Source: Pseudomonadota bacterium (GTDB taxonomy: Bacteria; Bdellovibrionota_B; Oligoflexia; Oligoflexales; CAIYRB01). From it: 64,000 bases of DNA. Positions 2,337 through 20,222 of the stretch are shown piece after piece; position 1 is the stretch's first letter, and the number at the start of each line of letters is the position of its first letter. The stretch is from assembly GCA_031416315.1 (NCBI GenBank), contig JANOTL010000138.1:98131-162130 (forward strand), read 5' to 3'. Below the pieces are notes generated by a model. The model had not been told where the DNA came from, searched no databases, and worked only from the letters and a program-made list of their open reading frames with translations. The position numbers and the translations under genes were made by a program.

Positions 2337-3386
2337 ATGCATCTTTTCGACTTGGGCCTCGACGCCCATTTCGCGGGACTCGTCACGCCATCGGAGCAAG
2401 AGTCGCTCGGTCGCGTCGTCGAGACCCAAAAGGGCGGCGCCCTCGTGCAAACGACGGCGGGCACCGTCTGGGCGAAGCCGCGCGGGCGGCTCGTACACAT
2501 GGTCGGCGAAGCCGAGGCGCAGCCAGCGGTCGGCGACTGGGTCGTCCTCCACGGCGGCGCGCAGATTGAACGCATTTTGCCGCGGCGGACGCTCCTGGCG
2601 CGGCAGCAAGTCGGCGAAGGCGGCGCGGAGGCGCAGCTGATCGCGGCGAACGTCGACGTCGTCTTCCTCGTCATGGCCTTGGCGGAAGACTTCAACGTCC
2701 GCCGGCTCGAGCGCTACTTGGCGACGGTCTGGGCCGGCGGCGCGATGCCGGCGGTCGTCCTGACCAAGGCGGACCTCTGTGCGGATCCCGCGCGCTACTT
2801 GGCGCAGGTGCGCGCGGCCGCGCCCGGCGTCCCGGTCGTCGTCGTCAGCTCGGTCACCGGCGAAGGCTTGGCCGAGGTCGAGCGCCTCGCCGAGACCGGC
2901 AAGACCGTCTGCGCCGTCGGCTCCTCCGGCGTCGGCAAGTCGACGCTCGTAAACCGGCTGATGGGCGTCGACGTGCTCGCGACGCAAGGCGTGCGCGAGA
3001 GTGACGGCAAGGGCCGCCACACGACGACCTCGCGCCATCTGTTCACGCTGCCCGGCGGCGCGTTGATGATCGACACGCCAGGCATGCGCGAGCTGATGCC
3101 GTGGGACGCCGAGTCCGGCGTCACGCGAATCTTCGGCGACGTCGAGGACTTTGCCGCACAGTGCCGCTTCAGCGACTGCCGGCACGAGACGGAGCCAGGC
3201 TGCGCGGTACAGGCCGCGCTCGAAGGCGGAGCTTTGACGAAAGATCGCTTCGCCGCCTGGGAGAAGCTCCTGCGTGAGCAGGCGTTCCAGGAGCGGCGCC
3301 GTGACGTTAAGGCCCAGGTCGTGGAGCGTGAAAAATGGAAAAAGATTCACAAGGAGATGCGGCGCAAGCCGCGCGTGAAGACCTAA
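2337..3386 (+). CDS. rsgA: Ribosome small-subunit-dependent GTPase A
   Basis: ATG at 2337 with GAAGGAG RBS. GTPase motifs AVGSSGVGKSTLVN and DTPG. C-terminal zinc-finger CRFSDCRHETEPGCAV is typical of RsgA/YjeQ. Confidence 0.9.
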   Translation: MHLFDLGLDAHFAGLVTPSEQESLGRVVETQKGGALVQTTAGTVWAKPRGRLVHMVGEAEAQPAVGDWVVLHGGAQIERILPRRTLLARQQVGEGGAEAQLIAANVDVVFLVMALAEDFNVRRLERYLATVWAGGAMPAVVLTKADLCADPARYLAQVRAAAPGVPVVVVSSVTGEGLAEVERLAETGKTVCAVGSSGVGKSTLVNRLMGVDVLATQGVRESDGKGRHTTTSRHLFTLPGGALMIDTPGMRELMPWDAESGVTRIFGDVEDFAAQCRFSDCRHETEPGCAVQAALEGGALTKDRFAAWEKLLREQAFQERRRDVKAQVVEREKWKKIHKEMRRKPRVKT

Positions 3387-6858: not shown

Positions 6859-9225
6859 TCAATAATCTCGGCGGTTGTACAGCGGCGCGTTCTTACTCAC
6901 CTCGAAATCCCCCGAGATCAGGTCCTTCCCGTTCGCGTGCAGACGCACCTTCCACTTCCCCTCTTCCATCGGGCCGGGGGATTTGTGGAAGACGTGCGCC
7001 GACGTCCAGTCCTTGTCGAACTTGAACGTGATCTCGCGCTTTTTGCCGGCGGGTGAGGTCCATTCGTAGAAGACCGTGGTGTCGTCCGGGAAAGCGACGC
7101 CGAAGGTCCACGCGACCATGTCCTCTTCCGGGTTGACCGTCTTGATCTCGTGGAAGTCCTTCTTCTTCCCGCCCTTGAGCGAGCCGAAGGCCAGCTTCTT
7201 CGGCCCGGGCGTCGAAAGGTCGTCGATCGCGAGCGCCACGCCGGCGGTCTTGCGGAAGCCCCGCAGCCGGTCGCCGTAGTCCTTGTTGATCTTCAGGTAC
7301 CACTGCTTCACCAGCGCCTGGTACTCGGTGATCTTCTCCAGGTTCTTGTCGGCCAGGTTTACGAGCTCGTGCGGGTCGTTCTCGAGGTCGAAGAGCTCGG
7401 GCTCGAACGGGGCGACCTTCTTGGCGATGAACTTCCACTTCCCGTCGCGGAGGCCCCAGCGCTCGGGCTGCGCGTTCTTGTGGAAGTAAGCGATGCGTTC
7501 TTTGTAATTGGGGTCAAAGAGATCCTGGCCCAAGAAGTCGCGCTTCGCCGGGGCCACGGTGTTGACCATGGTCGGCGCGATGTCGCCGACCGCGCCGAGG
7601 ATCGGCACCGTCGTCGGGCCGTCCTTCTTGCGCGGGTCGATGACGAGGAGGAAGTTCCGGATGTTCTCGTCGTAGATGTAGTTCTTGTGCGTCATGTTCG
7701 TCGGGTGCCACTCGCCGAAGGCTTCGCCGTGGTCGCCGCAGATGAAGATGATCGTGTTGTCGAGCTGGCCCTTCGCCTTCAGCTGGTCGACGAGCTGCTT
7801 GATCACGGAGTCCGTGAAGTTCAGCGCGTTGGTGTAGCGCGCTTTCCGATCGACCGGACCATCGCCGGTGCCGGCGGGGACGAGCGCAGGGTAGTCCTTC
7901 GGGATCGAATACGGATGGTGCGTGCCGTTGGTCATGTACTCGAGGAGGAAGGGGCCAGACTGCTTGCTGGCCCACTCGATCGCCTTGTCCATGACCCGGC
8001 GCTCGTCGACACCCCACGAGTTCAGCTTGTTCGACTTGCGGAAGTCGTCGGTGCCGTCCTCCGGCGTGAAGCTCTCGTCCCAAGGCAGGTTCTCGTAGAC
8101 GATGCCGAGGTTCTCGGTGTCCATGAACTGCGCCGAGAAGAGGCCCGTCTTGTAACCGGCCTTGCTGAGCTCGCCGGGGATCGTCGGGCCCATGAAGGAC
8201 TGCTTGTACTCTTCGTAGACCGAGCCCCAGGTGATCGTGTAGCCACCGGTCAGGATCGGCACGTGCGAGCGCACGGTGCCCGGAAAGTTGTCGTAGATGT
8301 GCGTGAAAATCGTCTGGTTCTGGCTCAAAGAGGCGAGAAAGGGCGTCGTCTTCGGGTCCAGCTTGCCGTCCGGCAAGATCTGCTTCGAGCCGACCGACTC
8401 GAGGACGAAGAACACGATGTTCGGCTTTTTCGGGTCGGTGCTCCAGCGCTTCGGCGTGTCGCGCCAGCCGGCCGGGAAGCCGTTGACGTTCGAGGGCAGG
8501 CCGAACTTCAGCGGATAAGGATCGTAATTGAGCGTCGCTGCTTGCGCCATGTTCGCTTGCGGCGCCGCGCGGAAGAGGCTAGCGGTCACGGAGATCAAAG
8601 GATGCGCGCTGATGTTGTAGAGGTCGCCACGCCCGATCAGCATGCCGCAGCAGATGATCGAATAGACCGCCGTATAGACGTAAGGAACGCGGCCGTTCTT
8701 GAAGTAGAACTTCGGCCAGGGCTCGCCCTTCTCCTGCCGGCGCAGGATCTGCGCGCCGACCAGGCAGGCAAGCCAAAGCGCGACGATCGCGTTCGCCGAG
8801 AAGGCGACGCCGAACTCGCCAACGATCGAGTCCTTCAGGGTCTCGAGGCTCGTCTCGGCGCCTTCGATGAAGCCGACCTGATAGTGGTCGAAGAAGATCG
8901 TGTAGAAGATGTTGTTGAAGAGCATGTAGGTGAGGACGAAGACGTAGACCGAGACCGCGAAGACGCGGCCGAAAACGGTCTTCGATGCGGCCACGAAGAG
9001 CGCGGTGACGAGCCCCGAGACGATCAGGTTCTGCACCTGGCTGAGCAAAATGCGCGAGAGGTCCGAGAACATCGGGTAGAACGCGGTGCGATGCCGCGCG
9101 AAGTAGATGCCGTAGTTTTCGTACTGCAGCGCGAGGTAGAAGAGGAACGTCGTGACGAAGACCAGCGTACCCGTGCGCCAGATGTTGGCTGGAGCACGGG
9201 GCGATTTGATTTTCTCGGACATCAT
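6859..9225 (-). CDS. LtaS/sulfatase (alkaline-phosphatase superfamily) membrane enzyme with C-terminal extension
   Basis: Five N-terminal TM helices. Extracytoplasmic sulfatase-like domain with NIVFFVLESVGSK and ICGDHGEAFGEWHP metal-site motifs. ~200-aa C-terminal extension. Stop overlaps the start region of the upstream rSAM gene (9222-9225). Confidence 0.8.
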   Translation of the reverse strand: MMSEKIKSPRAPANIWRTGTLVFVTTFLFYLALQYENYGIYFARHRTAFYPMFSDLSRILLSQVQNLIVSGLVTALFVAASKTVFGRVFAVSVYVFVLTYMLFNNIFYTIFFDHYQVGFIEGAETSLETLKDSIVGEFGVAFSANAIVALWLACLVGAQILRRQEKGEPWPKFYFKNGRVPYVYTAVYSIICCGMLIGRGDLYNISAHPLISVTASLFRAAPQANMAQAATLNYDPYPLKFGLPSNVNGFPAGWRDTPKRWSTDPKKPNIVFFVLESVGSKQILPDGKLDPKTTPFLASLSQNQTIFTHIYDNFPGTVRSHVPILTGGYTITWGSVYEEYKQSFMGPTIPGELSKAGYKTGLFSAQFMDTENLGIVYENLPWDESFTPEDGTDDFRKSNKLNSWGVDERRVMDKAIEWASKQSGPFLLEYMTNGTHHPYSIPKDYPALVPAGTGDGPVDRKARYTNALNFTDSVIKQLVDQLKAKGQLDNTIIFICGDHGEAFGEWHPTNMTHKNYIYDENIRNFLLVIDPRKKDGPTTVPILGAVGDIAPTMVNTVAPAKRDFLGQDLFDPNYKERIAYFHKNAQPERWGLRDGKWKFIAKKVAPFEPELFDLENDPHELVNLADKNLEKITEYQALVKQWYLKINKDYGDRLRGFRKTAGVALAIDDLSTPGPKKLAFGSLKGGKKKDFHEIKTVNPEEDMVAWTFGVAFPDDTTVFYEWTSPAGKKREITFKFDKDWTSAHVFHKSPGPMEEGKWKVRLHANGKDLISGDFEVSKNAPLYNRRDY

Positions 9226-10874
9226 GACCCCGTCGCGTCGACCTGAGCCGGTACGGCCCTCTCGAGCTGGATTTCCTGCAGCTTGGCTGTCTTATCTAGA
9301 ATATAGCGCCGTTGGGTCGAGAAATGGAGGTACATCCCCATCAAACGCATCGCCAGGTCGAAGTGGTTCGGCCCGGCAAAAAGTGCCTTGAAGAAGTTCC
9401 GCCAGTAAAGCGGGCGCCATTCGGGATTTTTGCTCATCTTCCAAGAGATGATGGCCAACCCCATGATGTCCCGCTTCAGCTCCCAGAGGCGGGGGAGGCG
9501 CTTCTGCTTGAGCTTGACGAGGAGGCACTGGCGCAGCACGCGGTCGAAATAGACCTTCGGCGAGTAGACCGTGTCCACGACGTTGCGGAACTCGGCCAGG
9601 ATCTCGTAGCGATTTCGCGTGGTGATGAAGTTGAGGCCGGCGACCGTTTGGTCGGCCACCTCGAAGGTCTTGAGGTCGGCGCCGTGCGCCGTCGAGGCGG
9701 AGGTGTCGTTGGCGTCGATCAGCTTCGAGTCGAAGCCCATGAGCCGACCCTCTTTCTTCAGGCGGCGGGTGAGCTGCGTGTTGGGCAAGGCCACGAGGAG
9801 TCCGGTCATCGCGATCGTGACGGCCCCGTCCTCGATGCACTTGATGATCGCCACGTCCATGTTCTTCTTCTCGCCGTCGAAGCCCATGATGAAGCCGGCG
9901 GTCGGCATGAGCCCGCAGGCCATCATCCGGTGCAGGCGGTCCTGGATCGGGCGCACGGTGTTCTGCGACTTCTGGGTCTTGAGCAGGAGCTCCGGGTCCG
10001 GCGTCTCGATGCCGGTGAAGACGATCCGGAAGCCCGCGTTCGCCATCTCCTTCATCATCGGCTCGTCGTCGGCCAGGTTCATCGACGCCTCGGTGGCGAA
10101 GAAGAAGGGGCGGAAGCGTTTACGGTTCCACTTGGTCAGGGCCGGCAGGATGTTCTGGCGGATGTAGCGCTTGTTGCCGATGAAATTGTCGTCGACGATG
10201 TCGACCGAGCCCGTGTAGCCCGTCTTCTTGATCGCCTCGAGCTCCTTGATCACCTGCTCCGGCGATTTGATCCGCGGCTTTCTGCCGAAAAGCTCGATGA
10301 TGTCGCAAAATTCGCAGTTGAAGGGACAGCCGCGCGAGATCTGCAGCGCCATCTGGTTGTAGTCGTTCTTGTCGAGCAGGTCGTAGCGCGGGACCGGCGT
10401 CGTCGTCATGTCGGGCTTATCGGCGGAGCGGAAGAGGCCCTTCGCCTCGCCCTTGCGCCAGCTTTCGAGCCACATCGGGATGGTGATCTCGCCTTCGTCG
10501 AGGACGCGCGCGTCGGCCGGCGTGTATACGTCGGCCTGGCTCGACGGGTCGGAGCCGCCGACGACCACGAATTTGCCGCGTTTTTTCGCCTCGTCGATGA
10601 CTCTCAACGTGTTCATCTGCTGCGGCAGCATGCCGCCGGTCGCGACCAGCTCGGCCCAGGCCCAGTCGGCGTCGCTCACCTGGCGGCAGTTCATGTCGAC
10701 GAGGCGAAACTCCCAGTGCTGCGGGAAGATCGCGGCGACCGTGATCAGGCCGAGGGGCATGTTCGGCGTCTTCGCGCCGATCGCCTCGACCGATTCCTTG
10801 TAGTTCCAAAAGCTCCCGATCGGGAACTCGGGCTGGATGAGGAGGCAGCGGATGGGCTGGTCGGGTGATTTCAT
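9222..10874 (-). CDS. B12-binding (class B) radical SAM protein with DUF4070-like C-terminus
   Basis: Start trimmed to MKSPDQPIRCLLIQPEF (ATG 10872-10874, AGGAAA RBS). N-terminal Rossmann-like cobalamin-binding region. Radical SAM cluster motif CPFNCEFC. Long C-terminal domain. Confidence 0.85.
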   Translation of the reverse strand: MKSPDQPIRCLLIQPEFPIGSFWNYKESVEAIGAKTPNMPLGLITVAAIFPQHWEFRLVDMNCRQVSDADWAWAELVATGGMLPQQMNTLRVIDEAKKRGKFVVVGGSDPSSQADVYTPADARVLDEGEITIPMWLESWRKGEAKGLFRSADKPDMTTTPVPRYDLLDKNDYNQMALQISRGCPFNCEFCDIIELFGRKPRIKSPEQVIKELEAIKKTGYTGSVDIVDDNFIGNKRYIRQNILPALTKWNRKRFRPFFFATEASMNLADDEPMMKEMANAGFRIVFTGIETPDPELLLKTQKSQNTVRPIQDRLHRMMACGLMPTAGFIMGFDGEKKNMDVAIIKCIEDGAVTIAMTGLLVALPNTQLTRRLKKEGRLMGFDSKLIDANDTSASTAHGADLKTFEVADQTVAGLNFITTRNRYEILAEFRNVVDTVYSPKVYFDRVLRQCLLVKLKQKRLPRLWELKRDIMGLAIISWKMSKNPEWRPLYWRNFFKALFAGPNHFDLAMRLMGMYLHFSTQRRYILDKTAKLQEIQLERAVPAQVDATGS

Positions 10875-10962
10875 GTCGTGTTTTCCTCGCTTACGCCTAT
10901 CGGACGCGAGGCCTTCCCGGCTTGAGGCGGCCAGATCCGCCGCGCTTTGGTAGAATGGGCAA

Positions 10963-11736
10963 ATGCAGAGAAAACAAATCATCATGCTGGGCGCGAGCAA
11001 CCTGACCCGCGGCATCTCGACCGTGGTCTCCTGGCTCCGTGGCAACCTCGGCGGCCCTTTCGACCTGTACGTCGCCTTTGGCTACGGGCGCTCTTTCGGG
11101 ATCAAGAGCGGCGTCTTCGGCCGCGACCTCCCGAGCATCAAGGACTGCGGCATCTGGGAGGCGCTCGCCGCTCGACCGCCCCACGAGCGCGACGCTCCGA
11201 CTTACGCTTTGATCACCGACATCGGCAACGACCTTCTGTATCAAGTCCCCCCGGATGAGATCGCGCGCTGGCTCGAATACGCCCTGCGCAAATTTCGCGA
11301 GCTAGGCGCCAAGATCTCGATCGTGCAAATCCCGAAGGCCAACGTCGAGAAAGTCACGAGACTGCAGTTCTTCCTCCTGAACCGCATATTCTTCCCCGGC
11401 CGCAACATGCAGCCCGACGACATGCGCGCCCGCGCCATGCGCCTCGCGGCGCACGTCGAGCGCCTCGCCCGCGAATACGGCGCGACGCTCGTCGACCAGA
11501 AGCCCGAGTGGTACGGCTTCGACCCGATCCATTATAAGATCTGGTGGTGGCCGCGGGCTTGGGCCTCGGTGCTGGGGTCCTGGCAAGAGACCGCGCTCGT
11601 TCCCGTCGCCGCCTTCCGCCAGTGGCTCTACCTGCGCAGCCGGGGTCCGGCCCAGCGCTGGTTCTTCGGGCGGGAGCAGCGCTATGCGCAGCCGCACGGC
11701 CGCCTGAGCGACGGCTCGACGGTGCACGTTTACTGA
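10963..11736 (+). CDS. Hypothetical protein, SGNH/GDSL-hydrolase-like
   Basis: Divergent from the rSAM gene. N-terminal IIMLGASNLTRG (GDS-like block) and DIGNDLL (GNDL-like block). No signal peptide. Confidence 0.4.
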   Translation: MQRKQIIMLGASNLTRGISTVVSWLRGNLGGPFDLYVAFGYGRSFGIKSGVFGRDLPSIKDCGIWEALAARPPHERDAPTYALITDIGNDLLYQVPPDEIARWLEYALRKFRELGAKISIVQIPKANVEKVTRLQFFLLNRIFFPGRNMQPDDMRARAMRLAAHVERLAREYGATLVDQKPEWYGFDPIHYKIWWWPRAWASVLGSWQETALVPVAAFRQWLYLRSRGPAQRWFFGREQRYAQPHGRLSDGSTVHVY

Positions 11737-11750
11737 GCTGGAAGCCCACG

Positions 11751-13094
11751 ATGCAATCCACGCACGCCGCCTGGCCCGTTTCCGCGTTCGAGCACTACAT
11801 GCTCGCAGACGACCGGCCCGATTTCGCGATGACGTGCTTCGTCCGCTGCCGCTTCGCCGGCCACTTTGATCGTCTTCGCTTCGAAAGCGCGTGGCGCGAG
11901 GCCGTCGTGCGGCATCCCATGACGCGAGCCTTGGTGCGCGGCCCGCGGTGGGGCCGCCGTCGCGACCTAGTCTGGTATCTCGACCCGAACGCCGCCTTTC
12001 CGGCAGTGCGTTGGCGCTCCGCGAATCCTGGAGTCCGTCCCGGCAGCTTTCCGTCGGACCCGCGGCGTGGAACGGGCTTCTTGCTTTGGCTCGACGAGCT
12101 ACCCGAAGAGACCGAGCTTTTGTTCCAGTTCCACCATGCTGTCTGCGACGGGGCGGGAGTCTTCGGTTTTCTGGAGGACCTCTTGCTCGCGTACGATCAC
12201 GCCGGCGCCGGCGGCGGCATGACGCCGCGCGTCTTGGATCCGACGCGCTTCGAGCGCCGAGACACGATCGGCCTCGACGCGGCCGAGCTGAAGGCGCGGT
12301 TGCCGCTGGACGTAGAGGAGACGCGCAAGTTTTTTCGCGTCTTGCCCGCGCCGGTCCGGCGCCCCAAGCACCGCCCCGCGGGGCTCGATAGAGCCCCGGA
12401 CCTTGCGGCGATCGTGCGGCGCGTGCTGTCAGAAGAAGACCTTCGCGCGCTTTCGGCCGCCGGCAAGCGCCGCGGCGCCACGTTGAACGACGCGCTTCTT
12501 CGCGACTTCTTCCTGGCGCTCGACGACTGGAACGGCGCGCAGGCGCCCGGCGCGCCGCGGCCTTCGTTGCGGCTCGCAATGCCTATGGACCTGCGTCTTC
12601 CCGACGACTCGGCGATGAGCGCCGCGAACCTGGTCAGCATGGTGTTTCTGACGCGGAGCGCGCGCGAGCTCGCGGACCGCGACGTCCTTTTGGCCTCGAT
12701 CGCCGCGGAGACGGCCCGCGCCAAGCGTCATCGCATGGGGATCACGCTGATCCGGGTCGTGCGCGCCCTCGGCGCCTGGTTCGCCGCGCTCGTGCTGTTT
12801 TTTCGCTTGCCGCTGTGCAGCGCGAGCGCCGTGCTCACCAATTTGGGTCGGCCCTTCTCGGGCTCCGGCCTTCTCGACGCCGAGGGACGAGTGCGCTCGG
12901 GGTCGACTAGGCTGCTGTGGCTGGAATCGATCCCGCCCCTGCGGCGACGCACGCGGGTCGCTGTCTCCGTCAACACCTACGGCGGCAAGCTGCGCCTCAC
13001 GTTGCATTACGATTCGACGGTCTTCGGCGCGGAGCATGCGGAGGAGATGCTGGAGCGCTACCTCGTTCGCCTGCGGCAGACGGCGCGGATCTGA
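11751..13094 (+). CDS. Condensation-domain / WS-DGAT (PapA5)-like acyltransferase
   Basis: HHAVCDGAG matches the HHxxxDG catalytic motif of the condensation/WS-DGAT superfamily. 447 aa. Starts 15 nt after the previous gene. Confidence 0.65.
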   Translation: MQSTHAAWPVSAFEHYMLADDRPDFAMTCFVRCRFAGHFDRLRFESAWREAVVRHPMTRALVRGPRWGRRRDLVWYLDPNAAFPAVRWRSANPGVRPGSFPSDPRRGTGFLLWLDELPEETELLFQFHHAVCDGAGVFGFLEDLLLAYDHAGAGGGMTPRVLDPTRFERRDTIGLDAAELKARLPLDVEETRKFFRVLPAPVRRPKHRPAGLDRAPDLAAIVRRVLSEEDLRALSAAGKRRGATLNDALLRDFFLALDDWNGAQAPGAPRPSLRLAMPMDLRLPDDSAMSAANLVSMVFLTRSARELADRDVLLASIAAETARAKRHRMGITLIRVVRALGAWFAALVLFFRLPLCSASAVLTNLGRPFSGSGLLDAEGRVRSGSTRLLWLESIPPLRRRTRVAVSVNTYGGKLRLTLHYDSTVFGAEHAEEMLERYLVRLRQTARI

Positions 13095-13119
13095 GCCGGA
13101 AGCGATCGGTGCGATCGCT

Positions 13120-13677
13120 TCACTTGCAGTCGCGCCACGCGAGGGCGAGCTTGGCCGCCTTCACCATCGCGACGCGGCTCGTCGCGGCGGGCGTGCCTTT
13201 CGCAAGGGCGCCCAGGCCGAAGACCAAGGTCGTGGCTTTGCCGCACCCGCCCCAGCGCGGCTCGAGGCGGACCGTTTCTTCCTGAGCGTTGCGCTTCACG
13301 CCGTCGCCATACGCGACGACGCCGGATGAGGTCTCCGCTGCGCCCTGCAGATGCATGCGAGCCGTAACCTCCGCGCTCGCGCCGTTCGCCACGTCGGCGT
13401 CGACGGAAAAGGTGAGCGCGTTGCCGGCGAGCTGCTTTCCAGGCTCGGCGGAGATCGTCACCGCCGCCTCGCAGTTGGACCTCATGAGGCCGCGCGCCTT
13501 TGGGCCGCCGGCCGCCGCCTCGAACGCGGGCATCTCGACGACCAGCGCGTCGGGCTCGAGCCGGGTGACGGCGGTCTGGGCCGCTTTGCAGCCGCTGCCG
13601 GCGAGCGAGGCTTGGGTGACTTTCGGCTCCGCGTGAGCGGAGGTCGCGACGAGGATCAAAGGCAAGAGATGACGCAT
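13120..13677 (-). CDS. Secreted paralog A of a DUF4360-like family
   Basis: Start trimmed to MRHLLPLILVATSAHA (signal peptide). GSGC motif and conserved Cys pattern shared with the three downstream paralogs. Most diverged member. Confidence 0.55.
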   Translation of the reverse strand: MRHLLPLILVATSAHAEPKVTQASLAGSGCKAAQTAVTRLEPDALVVEMPAFEAAAGGPKARGLMRSNCEAAVTISAEPGKQLAGNALTFSVDADVANGASAEVTARMHLQGAAETSSGVVAYGDGVKRNAQEETVRLEPRWGGCGKATTLVFGLGALAKGTPAATSRVAMVKAAKLALAWRDCK

Positions 13678-13766
13678 GGGAGGCCCTCCGAAAAGAGGAC
13701 CCCCCGCGACCCAAGGGCCGCGGGGGGCAAGACGAGTCTCGTCCATTTACCCCTGTCTTCCGTCGA

Positions 13767-14384
13767 TTAGCAACGGCGCCAGCGGACGCCGTAGACGTGC
13801 GTGAGCTCGCCGTCGATCGAGTCCGTGGTCATGAGGCCGCGGGCGAAGCGGTTTGAAGAGGTCAGGCGGACCTGAGTGTTGATGTTGAGCGCACGAGTCG
13901 CGCCGCAGGGCGACCACACGACGGCTGCGAGGCCGAGGCTGTCGCGGATTTGGTAGTCTTGCTGCGTCGGGCCGCGGAAGTTGGAGCGCAAGGTCGCCGT
14001 CGCAGCCGAACCTTGGAAGTAGTATGCCGACTGTTGCGTGCCGGTGACGCCGGCTTCGAGGCTCGCGTATCCGCGGTAGTCGACGTCGAGGATGGAGTAG
14101 CTCCAGCCTTGCGGGAAATGCAGGTCGACGGCGATCTGGCAGTTCTTGCGGGACTGGTTCAGCTGGACGCCGGGGCCGACTTCGGCGATGTAGCTGTCGA
14201 AGAGCAGCGTGAAGGCCTTGAGATCTTGCGCGACGTTTTGCGAGACGGTCCCGGCGGGGCAGCCCGAGCCGGCGTACGAGATGCTGCGGATGCGGACGTA
14301 CTCAGGGCTCTGCGCGAAAGCGGACGAGCTGAGCATCGCGATCGCGAGTCCGGCTCCGGCTTTCAAAAGGTTCGAGAATTTCAT
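13767..14384 (-). CDS. Secreted paralog B of the DUF4360-like family
   Basis: Signal peptide. VRIRSISYAGSGCPAGTVSQNVA...KNCQ...WSPCG. About 80% identical to paralog D (15682..16306). Confidence 0.75.
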   Translation of the reverse strand: MKFSNLLKAGAGLAIAMLSSSAFAQSPEYVRIRSISYAGSGCPAGTVSQNVAQDLKAFTLLFDSYIAEVGPGVQLNQSRKNCQIAVDLHFPQGWSYSILDVDYRGYASLEAGVTGTQQSAYYFQGSAATATLRSNFRGPTQQDYQIRDSLGLAAVVWSPCGATRALNINTQVRLTSSNRFARGLMTTDSIDGELTHVYGVRWRRC

Positions 14385-14557
14385 TTGTGACGATCCTCCT
14401 CAGAATGTTTGTGTTCCGCATTTGCCAGAACGATGCGTACTGTGCAGTTCACATGCCACCGCGAAAAAACGGGGAAAAAGCGTGCGAACTCGCGCGACCG
14501 CGCCATTGCGCGTGAGCGCTCGCGGTAACAAAAAACGCTGAGACGGAAAAAGATGGA

Positions 14558-14627
14558 CCGTTCTGTTGTTCTGCGAGCGCTCTTCGCCAAGTCACAGAAC
14601 GCTTTGTTCTGCGAGTATATTGCGTTC
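14558..14627. promoter_or_regulatory. Cluster of CAGAAC/GTTCTG half-sites including the palindrome AGTCACAGAAC-gcttt-GTTCTG, in the divergent promoter between paralogs B and C
   Basis: GTTCTG at 14560, 14569 and 14606; CAGAAC at 14595; direct repeat TTGTTCTGCGAG x2 (14566-14577, 14604-14615). Lies 40-110 nt upstream of the paralog C start. Confidence 0.5.
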
Positions 14628-14669
14628 TAAACAATTGTTTCGTATCTTCAGCCCGAGGGGGAGACGAAG

Positions 14670-15311
14670 ATGCACGAGCAAAGCACTTGGAAAGAGCAAT
14701 TTTTCGCCGCGATCGCCCTGGCCGCCGCGGCCGCTATCGCCCAGGCCGCGCGCGCCGACGAAAGTCGGGAGCCTGAGTTCACCGACGAGCCGGCATGGGT
14801 CTCGGTCCTTAGCGTCGTCAAGGCCGGCAGCGGCTGCCCCGCGAGCTACGGCGACGCGGTCGTCTACGGCGAGTCGCTCCTCATCATTGATTATGATCGC
14901 ATGACCGCGCGGTACGGCGCGGGCCACTCCCTGCGCGAATCGCGCAAGACTTGCCAGCTCTCGATCGATCTCGACTACCCGAGCGGCTGGACTTACGCGG
15001 TCGAGGCCGTCTACGCCGAGACCTCGCTGCGCCTCCCGGCCGGCACGACCGGTAAGGCGGTCTTCTCCGCCTACTTCCAAGGGACGAACGAGACGGCGCG
15101 CGCCGAGCGCCCCTACTACGGCCCAGCTGCGAGCTACGACGCGATGGATCTTTACTTCGACCGAGCCGTTTTCGCGCCGTGCGGCCAGTCCCGCCCGTTG
15201 AACGTCAAGGCCGAGGTCCAAACGAGCGTAAGCCGCTACGGCGGCGGGGCGAGCCGCGTCGGCCTCGACGGCCCCGCGTACCTCCTTCTTCGCTGGCAGC
15301 GGTGCGAGTGA
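14670..15311 (+). CDS. Secreted paralog C of the DUF4360-like family
   Basis: Signal peptide. GSGCPASYG ... KTCQLSIDLDYPSGWTY ... APCG. Same architecture as A/B/D. Confidence 0.7.
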   Translation: MHEQSTWKEQFFAAIALAAAAAIAQAARADESREPEFTDEPAWVSVLSVVKAGSGCPASYGDAVVYGESLLIIDYDRMTARYGAGHSLRESRKTCQLSIDLDYPSGWTYAVEAVYAETSLRLPAGTTGKAVFSAYFQGTNETARAERPYYGPAASYDAMDLYFDRAVFAPCGQSRPLNVKAEVQTSVSRYGGGASRVGLDGPAYLLLRWQRCE

Positions 15312-15445
15312 GCCGGGTTCGTAAGGCCCCGCTTCGGGGACCCGTGCCGCGCGCGGGACCCCCATTCGGACAAAAGTATCCCACCTGGAGCGCCGCTCTG
15401 GCGGGGCATCTCAGCGAATCTCAGTGAAACTTAGCGAGTCTTAGT

Positions 15446-15495
15446 CCCGATCGGTCGCACAAGTAAACCGCGCGACCGGTCGGGATTCTGTCATT
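15446..15495 (+). terminator. Stem-loop after paralog C (probable terminator)
   Basis: 13-bp stem CCCGATCGGTCGC / GCGACCGGTCGGG (one G-U), 13-nt loop, followed by a T-rich ATTCTGTCATTT. Confidence 0.4.
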
Positions 15496-15681
15496 TGGAC
15501 GTACGGGCTCCCCGAGCAGCTTGTCGTTGCAATCCCCGAAACCCTTACTCCGCGGCGTGTTCGAAACATCGCCCCGTCAATTTCGCGCCCTTCGCTCACC
15601 TCTGGCACATCGTTTGCTCAAGGGAGCGTGTTCGCAACGCAGCGAGCTTCAACTTCTTCATCTCTCTTGGAGGACTCCGCA

Positions 15682-16306
15682 GATGCTTTCCGCTCTCAAG
15701 AACCTGGTCAAATTCGGCGCTCCCGTGGCTGTCATGGCGTTCGCTTCCGTCGCCAACGCGCAAGCGCCTTCGCATGTCCGCATCCGCTCGATCTCGTACG
15801 CCGGCTCGGGCTGCCCCGCCGGAACCGTCTCGCAGAACGTCGCGCCGGACCTGAAGGCCTTCACGCTGCTCTTCGACAGCTACATCGCCGAAGTCGGCCC
15901 CGGCATCCCGCTGAACCAGTCCCGCAAGAACTGCCAAGTCGCCGTCGACCTCGACTTCCCGCAAGGCTGGTCCTACTCCCTGATGACCGTCGACTACCGC
16001 GGCTACGCGGCCCTCGACGCCGGCGTCCGCGGCGAGCAGAGCGCGGCGTACTACTTCCAAGGCCAGTCGGCCACCGCGCGTCTCGGCACGACCTTCAGCG
16101 GCCCGACCGCCCGCGACTACCAGATCCGCGACACCCTCGGGATCACGGCTCTCGTCTGGTCGCCGTGCGGCCTTTCCCGCGCGCTCAACATGAACACCCA
16201 AGTTCGCTTGTCGGCCCCGGCCGGCCGCCGCGGCATGCTGACCACCGACTCGATCGACGGTCAGATCACCCACGTCTACGGCATCCAGTGGCAGCGCTGC
16301 CGCTAA
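15682..16306 (+). CDS. Secreted paralog D of the DUF4360-like family
   Basis: ATG 15682 with GGAGG 8 nt upstream. Signal peptide MLSALKNLVKFGAPVAVMAFASVANA. Near-identical blocks with paralog B. Confidence 0.75.
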
Positions 16307-16357
16307 TCTTAGCGGTCCCGCTCGTACCGGTTACCTAGAAGCGCCTGTGTGTCTTCC

Positions 16358-16395
16358 GAGCTCCGCGGCGCCCGCCGCGGAGCTCTTCGTTTCCC
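16358..16395 (+). terminator. Rho-independent terminator after paralog D
   Basis: 13-bp perfect GC-rich stem GAGCTCCGCGGCG/CGCCGCGGAGCTC with a 3-nt loop, followed by TTCGTTTCC. Confidence 0.55.
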
Positions 16396-16438
16396 GCCAT
16401 AAATATAATCCAGTTTATAAACAAACTCTCAGCCAAAG

Positions 16439-16461
16439 AGTCACAGAACACCACGTTCTTT
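16439..16461. promoter_or_regulatory. Second copy of the AGTCACAGAAC-N5-GTTCT palindromic motif, ~60 nt upstream of the TIGR02147 regulator gene
   Basis: GAGTCACAGAACaccacGTTCTT matches 16 of 16 core positions of the 14592-14611 site. Preceded by an AT-rich stretch (16400-16430). Confidence 0.5.
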
Positions 16462-16518
16462 GAGCTTGTGCGCGGCGCGATAATCCGCTAGATTCTGTTT
16501 CGGAGGCGCGAAGTCGGA

Positions 16519-17325
16519 ATGCAAGATCTAGCGATCAACGACTACAAGACCATCCTCAAGGAGGAGCTCGCGTCTCGTTGTCGGCAGAACCCGCGCTACT
16601 CGCTCAGGGCTTTCGCCCGCGACCTGAAGCTCGCTCCCTCGCGGCTTTCCGAGGTGCTTTCTGGGAAGCAAGGCTTGTCGCGCCCAGCCGCCGAGCGCAT
16701 CGCCAAGTCCCTCGGCTACGCGGCGGGCGACATCGAGCGCTTCTGCGACCTAGTCGAGAGCCTGCACGCCCGCTCGAAGAAAAACCGCGATTCGGCTCGC
16801 CTGCGCTTGAAGAAGGTCGGCGGCGATTCCAGCGAGATTCAACTGCAAGCCGACACCGTCAAGCTCATCGCCGACTGGTATCATTTTGCGATTCTCGAGC
16901 TCACCAACCTCGACGGGTTCCGCTCGGAAAGTAAGTGGATCGCGAAGCGGCTCGGAATTTCCGAGTTCGAGGCGCAACTTGCGCTCGACCGCTTGCAGCG
17001 CCTGAACCTCATCACCCGCAAGGGCGACGAGATAAAACTGAACCACCAACATGGTTTTCATGCTTCCAACGTCTCCACCGAGGCGATCAACACCTTCCTC
17101 GGCCAGCTGATGGCGAAGGCGCGCGATGCGCTGTATTTCCAGCAGGTAGAACGCTCGGAGATCAACGCGGAGATCGTCGCGATCGACCGCGCGAAGATCC
17201 CGGAAGCGAAGAAAATGATTCGTGACTTCAGGCATAAATTTTGCAGAAAACTCGGTGAAGATGAGGTCCGCGACGGCCTCTACTGCATCGCGATCCAGTT
17301 CTTCGAGCTGACCGAGAGGGGATAG
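16519..17325 (+). CDS. TIGR02147-family HTH transcriptional regulator (Fibrobacter/Bdellovibrio-type)
   Basis: 268 aa. N-terminal YSLRAFARDLKLAPSRLSEVLSGKQGLS HTH block typical of the TIGR02147 family. Stop is 4 nt before the next gene start. Confidence 0.65.
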   Translation: MQDLAINDYKTILKEELASRCRQNPRYSLRAFARDLKLAPSRLSEVLSGKQGLSRPAAERIAKSLGYAAGDIERFCDLVESLHARSKKNRDSARLRLKKVGGDSSEIQLQADTVKLIADWYHFAILELTNLDGFRSESKWIAKRLGISEFEAQLALDRLQRLNLITRKGDEIKLNHQHGFHASNVSTEAINTFLGQLMAKARDALYFQQVERSEINAEIVAIDRAKIPEAKKMIRDFRHKFCRKLGEDEVRDGLYCIAIQFFELTERG

Positions 17326-17328
17326 ACG

Positions 17329-18936
17329 ATGTTCAAGGCTTCTCAAAAAATCGCGACGACCATGGCCTTGTGGTCGGCGTTCGCAACAGCGGCCTACGGC
17401 GGCTGGGGCATGGGCCGCGGCGGCGACTCCCTGCGACTCGCGTTCGCGCAAGCGAAGCAGCACGCCTCGCACATCGTCCTACGGCTGCGCCCGGAAGCGC
17501 TCCCGGCCAGCGTCCCCGCGGACGTGCGCGCCTGGCTCACCGAGCAGACCAACCGCGAGCAACTCGCGGCCGACATCTCCGCCTCGGAGCACGTCTGGAC
17601 GGAAGACGAGAAGCCGACCTGCGCCTGGACGCAGACGACGCGCGACGCCGCGATCGACCTCTCCTACGTTACCTGTCGCAAGGCGATGGATTTCGCCAGC
17701 GGCAACCGGCCGAGCGACCACACCTCGATCCCGAGCTTCGAGGCCGTCGGCCGCCTCTTGATCCACGAGTCCGTCCACCATTTCGGCATCACCGACGAGC
17801 AGTTTGCGGACTCGGTCGCGATCGCCGTCTACGACGCTTGGAGCGCCGGCGCCAACGAGTGGCTGCGCATCCCGAGCGCGCCCGAAGCGAAGACCAAGCA
17901 CGCGGCCGTCTGGGCCGACAATCAGATGATCGTTTTCGGCGGGCTCAACGCCTCGGGACGCGCCACCAATACCGGCTTCTCCTTCGACCCGAAGACCTCG
18001 ACCTGGACGGCACTGCCGAACGCCGGCGCTCCGGCGCGCGATCTGCCGCAGATGGTGTGGGCGGAAGATAAGCTGATCGTCTGGGGCGGCTACGTCGCGA
18101 AGACCGTCTCCGGCACGCAGACGTTCGTCTGGCAGAACAACGGCGCGGTCTATGCGAACGGACGCTGGACCAATCTTGCGCCGCCCGCAGGCCAACCGGC
18201 GGAGCTCGCCGACGCGGCGGCTTACATCGACCGCGGCGTGCAGACGATGGTTTGGACCGGCACCGAGGCCGTGATCTTCGGCGGCGCGCCGGTGAGCGGC
18301 AAGCTCATGGGCGGAGCCTACAACCCGACGACCGGCGCCTGGCGCCAAGTGAAGACGCAGGGCGCGCCCGACGCCGTCAGCGGCCACACTGCCGTGTGGG
18401 CGGGCGACAAGATGATCGTCTTCGGCGGCCGCGACTCGGCTCGCAACATCTCGAACCGTGGCGCCGCTTGGAGCGCTTCTGCGAACGCCTGGACGACGCT
18501 CTCGACGACCGGCGCCCCCTTGGCCCGCGACGCGCACACCGCGGTGTGGACCGGCAGCAAGATGCTCGTCTTCGGCGGTCAGACCTCGACCTCTGCAGGA
18601 TCGAGCGGCAACGGCGGCGTCTATGATCCGAGCAACGGTAGTTGGCTCTCGTTCACGACCGAAGCCGCCCAAGGCCGCTTCGAGCATGCCTCGGTCTGGA
18701 CCGGCTCGGAGATGCTCGTCTACGGCGGCAAGTCGGCCCGCTTTATCTTCTCACTCGGCGCGATGGCCGCCTACAGCCCGGCCGCCAAGGCCTGGCGCGT
18801 GAGCGAGGGCGCGGCGCAGGCACCGGCCTCTCGGATGCACCCGACCGCGGTTTGGACGGGCTCGTCCGTCATCGTCTTCGGCGGCACCCTCGACGGCGGT
18901 GCAGCCACCGCAACCGGCGGCGTGTTCTTCCCGTAA
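17329..18936 (+). CDS. Secreted Kelch-repeat protein with N-terminal HExxH-containing domain
   Basis: Signal peptide. N-terminal domain with LIHESVHHFG (HExxH). At least six WxGxxMIVFGG Kelch-like repeats. Confidence 0.75.
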   Translation: MFKASQKIATTMALWSAFATAAYGGWGMGRGGDSLRLAFAQAKQHASHIVLRLRPEALPASVPADVRAWLTEQTNREQLAADISASEHVWTEDEKPTCAWTQTTRDAAIDLSYVTCRKAMDFASGNRPSDHTSIPSFEAVGRLLIHESVHHFGITDEQFADSVAIAVYDAWSAGANEWLRIPSAPEAKTKHAAVWADNQMIVFGGLNASGRATNTGFSFDPKTSTWTALPNAGAPARDLPQMVWAEDKLIVWGGYVAKTVSGTQTFVWQNNGAVYANGRWTNLAPPAGQPAELADAAAYIDRGVQTMVWTGTEAVIFGGAPVSGKLMGGAYNPTTGAWRQVKTQGAPDAVSGHTAVWAGDKMIVFGGRDSARNISNRGAAWSASANAWTTLSTTGAPLARDAHTAVWTGSKMLVFGGQTSTSAGSSGNGGVYDPSNGSWLSFTTEAAQGRFEHASVWTGSEMLVYGGKSARFIFSLGAMAAYSPAAKAWRVSEGAAQAPASRMHPTAVWTGSSVIVFGGTLDGGAATATGGVFFP

Positions 18937-18968
18937 AAAAAACGGGTGCAAACGGCGAAAAATTTCGG

Positions 18969-19001
18969 CATGAGACGTCCTCCCCCAAAGGACGTCTCAT
19001 G
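18969..19001 (+). promoter_or_regulatory. Perfect 12-bp hairpin enclosing the SD-like AAGGA and the ATG of the astacin gene
   Basis: CATGAGACGTCC-tcccccaaa-GGACGTCTCATG. The 3' arm ends exactly at the start codon (18999-19001). Confidence 0.45.
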
Positions 19002-20222
19002 CCGCGCTGCATTATGCCGATTTTCATGGCCCTAGCGGCTTGCTCGAAGCCACTGCCCGAGGCCTCGCGTGCGGCGTCTTACGTTTCGGAGCGCGATCTT
19101 TGGCCGACGGCGCGGATCTCGGTTTGCTGGGAGCTGTCGGCTCTCCCTTTCCCCGAAGAGCGGGGCTGGGTCCGCGAGCAGATCGAGTCCCAATACAACG
19201 AGAAGACTTCGCTCAGCTTCGTCGACTGGCGCATGTGCTCGGCGAGCACGCGCGGCGGCATCCGCGTCGGGGTCGAGGACTCCGCGAGCAACAACCCGCA
19301 CACCGTCGGCCTCGGCCGCAACGTCCGCCACGCCGTCGACGGGCTGGTCCTCAACTTCGAGTTCCGCAACTGGAGCACGAGCTGCCAGGCGAACCGCGAG
19401 GACTGCATCCGCGGCATCGCCGTCCACGAGTTCGGCCACGCCGCCGGCCTGGCCCACGAGCAGAACCGGACCGATCGCCCGTCGAGCTGCGCCGAACCGG
19501 CGCAAGGCACCGACGGTGACCGGACGGTCGGCGCCTACGACGCCGCATCCGCGATGAACTACTGCAATCCGATCTACAACAACGGCGGTTTGCTCAGCGA
19601 CGGCGACTTGGACGGGATCGATCACCTCTACGAGGGCCGCCCCGACCTGCCGATCGCCGCGCGGCGACCGATCGAGCTCCCTTGCAACGCCGTCGTCGCG
19701 AGCCGCGACCGGGGCCCGCGCCTTGCGGTCGAGCTCGTCAACGCCTCGCGGCGTGCGATGCGCCTCGAGTGGGTCGACACGGCCGGCGTCCGTCGCCCCT
19801 TCAGCGCCATGCCGGTCCGCCACGCCTCGACCTTTCAGGCGACCGTCGGCCACGTCTTCGAGGTCGCCGACGCCAACGGCGCCTGCGTCACGCGCTACCA
19901 GGTCGACGCCAATGCGACGCCCTTCGTCGTCCACCAGGAGGAGCCCTTCCTCGACGACTGGGGCTGCGGCACGCCGAACCAGACTCTGAGCTCCGGCGCG
20001 CCCGGGACGATCGAGTTCGTCAACGAGTCGGCGCGAGCCGCCACGGTTTTCTGGCTCGATTGGCAGGGCAATCGCCGCGACTTCGCCGTCGTCTCGCCGG
20101 GCCGACGCCATGTGCAAACGACCTTCGACGGCCATGCCTGGATGGTGGGCGACGCGAACGGAGCTTGTCGCGCCACGACGACCGCGACGGCGAGTTACCG
20201 TTACCTCGTGTTCTCGCGGTAA
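18999..20222 (+). CDS. Astacin-family (M12A) zinc metalloprotease lipoprotein with two C-terminal VHL-beta-like domains
   Basis: Lipobox MALAAC. Extended astacin signature HEFGHAAGLAHEQNRTDR (HExxHxxGxxHExxRxDR) and Met-turn SAMNY. Two ~95-aa C-terminal repeats (VNxS...W.D..G.RR.F...T....GH.W..DANGAC). Confidence 0.85.
   Translation: MPRCIMPIFMALAACSKPLPEASRAASYVSERDLWPTARISVCWELSALPFPEERGWVREQIESQYNEKTSLSFVDWRMCSASTRGGIRVGVEDSASNNPHTVGLGRNVRHAVDGLVLNFEFRNWSTSCQANREDCIRGIAVHEFGHAAGLAHEQNRTDRPSSCAEPAQGTDGDRTVGAYDAASAMNYCNPIYNNGGLLSDGDLDGIDHLYEGRPDLPIAARRPIELPCNAVVASRDRGPRLAVELVNASRRAMRLEWVDTAGVRRPFSAMPVRHASTFQATVGHVFEVADANGACVTRYQVDANATPFVVHQEEPFLDDWGCGTPNQTLSSGAPGTIEFVNESARAATVFWLDWQGNRRDFAVVSPGRRHVQTTFDGHAWMVGDANGACRATTTATASYRYLVFSR

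Follow-up and report, generated by a model that had tools for sequence, protein, structure and literature searches.

Two copies of a 23-bp palindrome within a 64-kb stretch of bacterial DNA (positions 98,131 to 162,130 of contig JANOTL010000138.1, GenBank assembly GCA_031416315.1; hereafter the window) are probably operators of the TIGR02147 regulator encoded next to them, as judged from sequence comparisons. Homologs of the locus indicate an uncultured Bdellovibrionota/Oligoflexia-like lineage. In the mechanism that we propose, a dimer of the protein encoded at 16519-17325 would bind the palindrome TCACAGAAC-N5-GTTCTGTGA by means of an N-terminal HigA/XRE-type helix-turn-helix (HTH) and an ArsR-like winged HTH within its DUF4423 region, just upstream of the −35 element of two sigma-70-type promoters. 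At operator 2, the promoter would drive the regulator's own HTH-Kelch operon, making the circuit autoregulatory, and at operator 1 it would drive rightward transcription of DUF4360 genes: paralog C in the window and a D-like paralog in relatives. An earlier sequence-only reading of the window had proposed an autoregulated transcription factor that also controls its neighbours, and conservation in orthologs, a family-wide pairing of regulators with palindromes and the presence of two predicted DNA-binding folds lend support to that proposal.

The sequence-only reading had reported a duplicated motif, AGTCACAGAAC-N5-GTTCT, at 14592-14611 and 16440-16460. Exactly two copies of this motif occur within the window, as identical 21-nt sequences (AGTCACAGAACNNNNNGTTCT) on the + strand, although their positions, 14590-14610 and 16439-16459, differ by 1-2 nt from those first given. 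When up to three mismatches were allowed, five hits were found in the window against a mean of 0.19 in 100 dinucleotide-preserving shuffles, none of which (0/100) reached five. Hits on the reverse strand at both places revealed each copy to be the core of a longer inverted repeat, and the full 23-bp element is therefore larger than was originally described. Operator 1, TCACAGAACgctttGTTCTGCGA, lies at 14592-14614 (+) in the intergenic region between DUF4360 paralogs B and C, and operator 2, TCACAGAACaccacGTTCTTTGA, at 16441-16463 (+) upstream of the TIGR02147 gene; measured against the arm consensus TCACAGAAC, left arms match at 9/9 positions and right arms at 8/9 in both. The distance from the start of the motif to the next ATG is exactly 80 nt at each copy (ATG at 14670 and 16519, respectively). 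A position weight matrix built from 16 ortholog sites alone, with the window held out, scored operator 2 at 32.7 bits and operator 1 at 29.3 bits, followed in the 64 kb by runner-up hits of 11.1 and 11.0 bits, the chance level for a sequence of this length (0.8 hits of ≥10 bits in Markov-simulated 64-kb sequence). Within the window, the element is confined to the DUF4360/TIGR02147 cluster.

Further half-sites surround operator 1, as the sequence-only reading had also remarked: five of the window's 33 CAGAAC/GTTCTG hexamers fall inside the 285-bp B-C intergenic region, among them GTTCTG at 14560 and 14568 and CAGAAC at 14426. The two direct half-sites GTTCTG-tt-GTTCTGCGA (14560-14576, +; the pair reads GTTCTGttGTTCTGCGA) are copies of the right arm, located 15 nt upstream of operator 1 as putative auxiliary sites, and many family members appear to carry an additional upstream half-site like the right arm when the alignment is inspected by eye. 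A weak palindrome, TGCCAGAACgatgcGTACTGTGC (14423-14445, no strand assigned), lies beside the sigma-54 promoter of paralog B and is possibly a third site in the window, an uncertain one given arms matching at 7/9 and 7/9 and a score of 11.0 bits, no better than chance in 64 kb. In addition, CAGAAT-N5-GTTCTG occurs in the 5′ leader of the B-like DUF4360 gene, where it overlaps the ribosome-binding site; it is kept in three orthologs (L106 at 6052, L107 at 6502 and L110 at 3198), and the window copy (14404-14421) has a spacer 1 nt longer. This sequence may be a low-affinity operator, or may merely reflect conservation of the ribosome-binding site.

Orthologous loci were drawn from genomic and metagenomic contigs. 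A search for the exact regulator protein gave a single 8.2-kb Logan contig; the GTDB species set yielded one close relative, L002 (67% identity, 3.4-kb contig), with all others at ≤46%, and a metagenome scan returned relatives at ≤42% only. Close homologs (57-69% identity) comprise contigs L002 and L106-L114, with more distant orthologs on L115/L116 (54%) and L117 (48%). Across these orthologous loci the gene order DUF4360(−)/DUF4360(+)/TIGR02147/Kelch is kept, and the HTH-Kelch pair is present in all of them. The sequence TCACAGAAC-N5-GTTCT(T) occurs 67-83 nt before the regulator ATG in every ortholog of ≥57% identity. In nine related metagenomic loci the arms of operator 2 are essentially invariant, with a 5-nt spacer that differs per locus (accac, atgat, actgt, gcaat, acact, aagat, actat, aatgt and aaact), a pattern that we read as a classical phylogenetic footprint. 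Every locus for which upstream sequence is available carries a second copy in the DUF4360 intergenic region, usually as a better palindrome and often as a perfect one; such equivalents of operator 1 are kept in eight loci (L002, L106, L107, L110, L111, L113, L114 and L117). The 48% ortholog L117 has a perfect TCACAGAACattatGTTCTGTGA in the operator 1 position, and L117 and L114 both read ...CACAGAAC-N5-GTTCTGTGA. Thus the comparison of orthologous intergenic regions, which the sequence-only reading had put forward as a check, finds the arms kept at both sites while the N5 spacer varies.

The spacer is 5 nt long at all 18 sites (16 from orthologs and two in the window). In the list of ortholog sites, the promoter-proximal arm is systematically weaker at the regulator promoter (GTTCTTTGA or GTTCTTTAA) than at the DUF4360 promoter (GTTCYGTGA), which suggests that the two sites may differ in affinity. 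A scan of the orthologous loci with the core hexamer gave further matches only at the 2-mismatch level, and no other conserved DNA-binding gene was found among the called genes of these loci.

Both operators stand immediately before rightward promoters of the sigma-70 type, whose assignment rests on comparative register instead of a strict consensus scan. The inferred promoter of paralog C (14620-14648, +) consists of a −35 element TTGCGT (14620-14625), a 17-nt spacer and a −10 element TATCTT (14643-14648), and that of the TIGR02147-Kelch operon (16466-16494, +) of TTGTGC (16466-16471), likewise 17 nt, and TAGATT (16489-16494). In orthologs, the regulator site is followed by CTTTACA or CTTGCA as the −35 element, 17 nt and then TAGATT, TAATGT or TAGAAG as the −10 element. 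At site 1, all orthologs have CTTGAC, CTTGAT or CTTGCA 4-5 nt past the palindrome and a −10-like hexamer 17-18 nt further on, always in the rightward direction. The interval between the end of the palindrome and the −35 element is 2-5 nt across both cluster sites in the window and its orthologs and, taking the −35 element at about −35 to −30, the operator extends from ~−62 to −40, centred near −51. Relatives that lack paralog C have the operator 1 promoter facing a leader of 250-450 nt, with the D-like gene first, whereas L117 has only one operator and promoter, placed before DUF4360-TIGR02147-Kelch in what looks like one operon. Site 1 would therefore serve a rightward sigma-70 promoter, that of paralog C here and of the D-like paralog in relatives. 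The earlier idea of a promoter region shared divergently between B and C did not hold up: site 1 goes with the rightward promoter and paralog B has a sigma-54 promoter of its own.

To test which protein binds the sites, we examined ~95 loci encoding distant TIGR02147 homologs (27-46% identity), giving a full family set of 106 genes at 27-69% identity whose loci are not fully independent, and called a palindrome where AC-N5-GT with ≥7/9 arm matches occurred at −140 to −40. By this definition 41/106 TIGR02147 genes have their own palindrome, compared with 8/1755 random windows, 6/2120 shuffles and 6/446 regions upstream of other long open reading frames (ORFs) in the same loci; the last comparison gives a Fisher p of ~1e-26, a value to be read with the incomplete independence of the loci in mind. 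This pairing is the strongest link to the TIGR02147 protein as the probable binder, the candidate already favoured in the sequence-only reading. In most loci of distant homologs, the best upstream palindrome is found 50-100 nt ahead of the start codon and follows a common design: seven variable bases, AC-N5-GT and the same seven bases in reverse complement (for example, TTTTGGAACactttGTTCCAAAA, TCAAGTAACgctttGTTACCTGA, TCACATAACggaatGTTATGTGA, GCTCCGAACaaaacGTTCGGAGC and ATTTGTCACactttGTGACAAAT). The outer arm bases are specific to each paralog, as in TTTTGGAAC, TCAAGTAAC, TCACATAAC and GCTCCGAAC.

When rows were aligned on the palindrome, TTG occurred exactly 4 nt after it in 21/38 non-redundant rows, and on the opposite side in ≤3 rows at any offset. 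A TAnAAT-like −10 element follows about 17 nt after the TTG, and the 5-nt spacer of the palindrome has an oriented consensus of aCtTT. Several paralogs (L062, L064, L065, L066, L071 and L032) have their ATG just 6-8 nt past the inferred −10 element and probably produce leaderless mRNAs; that the short gap implies such transcripts supports the promoter assignment. Operator sequence tracks orthogroup: proteins sharing as little as 48% identity have the same operator, whereas paralogs at ≤46% have different ones. Since each paralog has its own palindrome of the same design in the same place, this class of site is tied to the TIGR02147 family and not to a global regulator; autoregulatory factors would be expected to give such a pattern, with a separate palindrome for every paralog and a constant register to the promoter. 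A conserved inverted repeat at the factor's own promoter is thus found both in the orthologs and at the level of the whole family.

Predicted control of neighbouring genes is less widespread. Among 18 loci of distant paralogs, only L013 has a clear second copy of its operator, so that co-control of neighbours does not, within the available flanks, amount to a general rule. L013, a paralog at 46% identity, carries two copies of its own operator, TCGCGGAACgcattGTTCC(A/G)(C/T)GA, at 2771-2793 and 3215-3237, the second of which precedes a small cysteine-rich ORF with a signal-peptide-like N-terminus. Here, as in the window, the operator is duplicated onto a gene for a secreted protein.

The regulator itself (16519-17325, +; 268 residues) belongs to TIGR02147 (NCBIfam; 97.9 bits against a cut-off of 50) and to DUF4423 (Pfam PF14394; 126.6 bits against a cut-off of 30), while HTH_31 (25.3 bits, threshold 27) and HTH_3 (17.3 bits, threshold 23) both fall just below their Pfam gathering thresholds. 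An AlphaFold2 model of the protein has a mean predicted local distance difference test score (pLDDT) of 84.5, with pLDDT >87 over residues 11-100. In this model, residues 9-100 form an N-terminal helical HTH domain with the five-helix XRE/Cro-CI-type fold. Foldseek matched this domain best to HigA antitoxins in complex with DNA (probability 1.0, target template modelling score ~0.6) and next to other XRE proteins, C.BclI and ClgR among them. Residues 102-111 form a disordered linker, and a second DNA-binding fold, an ArsR-like winged HTH, is modelled inside DUF4423. Similarity of the latter to CzrA/ArsR chains is marginal (E 0.008-0.12 only), and no Pfam HTH_5 or HTH_20 hit was reported. From the model it is plausible that the regulator binds DNA as a dimer whose subunits each contribute two DNA-binding folds. 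Across the family, the segment after the recognition helix separates operators with TC-type outer bases (G-K-x-G-L-S) from those with TTT/ATT-type outer bases (G-K-R-x-x-S); as read from the alignment, the glycine of the G-x-S segment is present in 18/18 TC-type rows vs 2/18 others.

The cluster includes four DUF4360 genes identified by Pfam. Paralogs A (13120-13746, −) and B (13767-14384, −) are separated by 20 nt, with A downstream, and from this gap we infer that they are co-transcribed. Paralog B is preceded by a sigma-54-type promoter (TGGCATgtgaaCTGCA, 14458-14443, −), ~145 nt upstream of which lies operator 1 in the window. Operator 1 and its promoter are predicted to act directly on paralog C (14670-15311, +), and paralog D (15683-16306, +) again has a sigma-54-type promoter of its own (TGGCACatcgtTTGCT, 15603-15618, +). 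The sequence-only reading had suggested a link between the regulator and the array of secreted paralogs; this link persists for paralog C, but B and D have their own sigma-54 promoters, conserved as TGGCAC-N5-TTGCW (TGGCAC-N5-TTGCT in the window, with GG-N10-GC spacing) before B-like and D-like genes in nearly all orthologs. Between paralog D and the regulator promoter stands a strong terminator-like hairpin with a T-tail (16358-16385, +). The window also contains four tandem 10-nt units (ATCTCAGCGA ATCTCAGTGA AACTTAGCGA GTCTTAGTCC) at 15408-15447, kept in L002, L106, L107, L110, L111, L113 and L114 at 130-220 nt upstream of the D-like sigma-54 promoter. This block is without an Rfam match and is a candidate enhancer or response-regulator array.

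Downstream, a gene for a Kelch beta-propeller protein (Pfam; 17329-18936, +) starts 4 nt past the stop codon of the HTH gene, and in relatives it overlaps or abuts that gene; for these reasons we regard it as the regulator's operon partner. The suggested extension of control to the Kelch and astacin genes therefore stands for Kelch and is uncertain for the astacin-like gene, which is not conserved beside the cluster and is separated from Kelch by a strong hairpin. This is a perfect 18-bp hairpin at 18966-19004, between the Kelch stop (18936) and the astacin-like gene; its right arm includes the astacin ATG (18999), and it is terminator-like only on the minus strand. On the other side of the cluster, upstream of the DUF4360 array, are a B12-binding radical SAM/DUF4070 protein (Pfam; 9222-11045, −) and an ORF at 6859-9225 (−). 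L106 and L107 have a syntenic radical SAM gene followed by a gene with a Sulfatase hit.

As for the direction of control, we slightly favour repression over activation, that is, negative autoregulation, in which the bound protein would hinder the carboxy-terminal domain of the RNA polymerase alpha subunit and sigma region 4. This preference draws on the near-consensus −35 and −10 elements and on flanking half-sites that suggest cooperative occupancy. Several observations weigh against our interpretation, in this and in other respects. The fixed register wholly upstream of the −35 element is more typical of activators than of repressors. A strict sigma-70 consensus scan of 13000-17400 called no promoter, the inferred ones included. 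Some 60% of family loci are without a palindrome under the strict AC-N5-GT definition, some having variant spacings and some none at all. The correlation between recognition helix and operator is suggestive and phylogenetically confounded. The genome scan covered 64 kb, and is as such compatible with a wider regulon or a distant binder. Finally, operator 1 is placed upstream of the conserved B-like sigma-54 promoter at a distance (115-210 nt) typical of sites for enhancer-binding proteins (about 80-200 nt).

This last point, together with the conservation of TGGCAC-N5-TTGCW in the window and its relatives, invites the explanation that a sigma-54 enhancer-binding protein with its gene elsewhere uses the palindrome as its upstream activating sequence and would activate the DUF4360 sigma-54 promoters, with the copy at the regulator promoter cross-regulating a sigma-70 promoter, as NtrC does at glnAp1. 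We consider this unlikely. Signatures of the GAFTGA, ESELFGH or Walker A type were absent from every frame of the window and the orthologous loci; the palindrome keeps a fixed register, 2-5 nt from a sigma-70-type −35 element, at both sites in all orthologs; and L117 has the operator without a sigma-54 promoter. For the D-like promoter, the 10-nt tandem block is a better enhancer candidate, and such an activator would not explain why TIGR02147 genes across the family are paired with palindromes of their own. A second explanation, to which we give similarly little credence, is that some other regulator, global or distant, binds the sites and that the copy at the HTH gene reflects co-regulation instead of autoregulation. 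It draws its force from the confinement of the evidence to sequence, from 64 kb of one genome and short contigs of relatives. Neither a single global factor nor an enhancer-binding protein would, however, give distant TIGR02147 paralogs each a different palindrome of the same design and register. The operator sequence follows the orthogroup, and the window holds no further site above chance.

Explanations that deny the palindrome a role as a protein-binding site fare worse. Formation of an RNA hairpin (attenuator, terminator or processing site) is conceivable in that 9-nt arms and a 5-nt loop could fold, and palindromy is maintained with different sequences across paralogs. We nevertheless judge it very improbable: the palindrome lies upstream of the −35 element of its promoter in fixed register, its arms are invariant within the orthogroup and do not co-vary, no T-tract follows it, and Rfam returned no match in 13000-17500 at E up to 1. 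Less credible still is a motif shared by chance, or left over without function from a duplicated promoter fragment. The DUF4360 paralogs do show that local duplications occurred, but chance expectation is near zero in both the shuffles and the held-out matrix, which rules out a chance match, and a remnant of promoter duplication is ruled out by a likeness that, as read from the sequence, stops at the palindrome edges with unalignable flanks, and by arms that are kept in orthologs while spacer and flanks diverge. Operators of the adjacent TIGR02147 protein thus remain our preferred explanation of the two copies.

The system is conceptually a standard autoregulated HTH and operator pair, and resembles several known ones in part. 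HigA and other XRE autoregulators, such as Proteus vulgaris HigA with its operator (PDB 6chv), have the same N-terminal fold (Foldseek probability 1.0), a palindromic operator at their own promoter and, by implication, dimeric binding. The protein described here is ~170 residues longer, with a second, winged-helix domain, and its operator lies upstream of the −35 element, whereas HigA-type operators lie over the −35 and −10 elements. A HigBA toxin-antitoxin module was rejected because the flanking genes encode DUF4360 and Kelch proteins and no toxin, and TIGR02607 scored 22.5 bits against a cut-off of 47.7. The C proteins of restriction-modification systems (C.BclI, C.AhdI) also have an XRE-type HTH, with C.BclI at ranks 37, 42 and 46 of the fold hits. 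These proteins are autoregulatory and bind palindromic C-boxes at a fixed position beside the −35 element, combining activation with repression. No restriction-modification genes lie near the locus, however, the regulator is much larger and carries DUF4423, and its operator sequence and 9-N5-9 geometry are unrelated to those of C-boxes, so that the analogy is one of mechanism only. Compared with ArsR/SmtB repressors (CzrA, SmtB), sequence similarity is marginal and the winged domain comes after an XRE HTH in the same chain, a fusion not known among ArsR proteins; the regulator is not demonstrably an ArsR-family sensor. The Gram-positive LexA Cheo box (GAAC-N4-GTTC) shares the GAAC...GTTC inverted core, but was ruled out by a spacer of N5 and not N4 at every one of the 18 sites. 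The arms here are moreover 9 nt long with TCACA, none of the neighbours identified by Pfam is a known SOS gene, and within the window the sites occur only in the cluster.

TIGR02147/DUF4423 proteins form a large paralogous family in Bdellovibrionota and Fibrobacter, for which no functional study was found in the searchable literature. The sole literature match was Bd3700, listed as 'DUF4423 domain-containing' in a proteomics table and up-regulated during growth within prey. DUF4360 is otherwise known from secreted fungal proteins, and a role in prey invasion has been suggested for a crystallised relative, Bd1399 (PMC10792529). A bolder and rather speculative extension of our interpretation, which we regard as improbable in its full form, is that TIGR02147 proteins constitute a lineage-specific dual-HTH class (XRE plus ArsR-like wing) in Bdellovibrionota, in which the N-terminal HTH, itself strictly conserved, would read the AAC-N5-GTT core that is invariant in the family, and a second element the paralog-specific outer bases. 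Such proteins would act as register-dependent activators centred near −51 of sigma-70 promoters and, in this cluster, together with the sigma-54 promoters, would set when secreted DUF4360 and Kelch proteins are expressed, perhaps in connection with predation.

In conclusion, our analysis provides the first predicted operator for the TIGR02147 family, N7-AC-N5-GT-N7 with the TTG of the −35 element most often 4 nt after it (2-5 nt in this cluster), and the first predicted regulon for one of its orthogroups, comprising its own Kelch operon and secreted DUF4360 proteins. The operator rule could be used to predict the regulons of the many paralogs in predatory bacteria.

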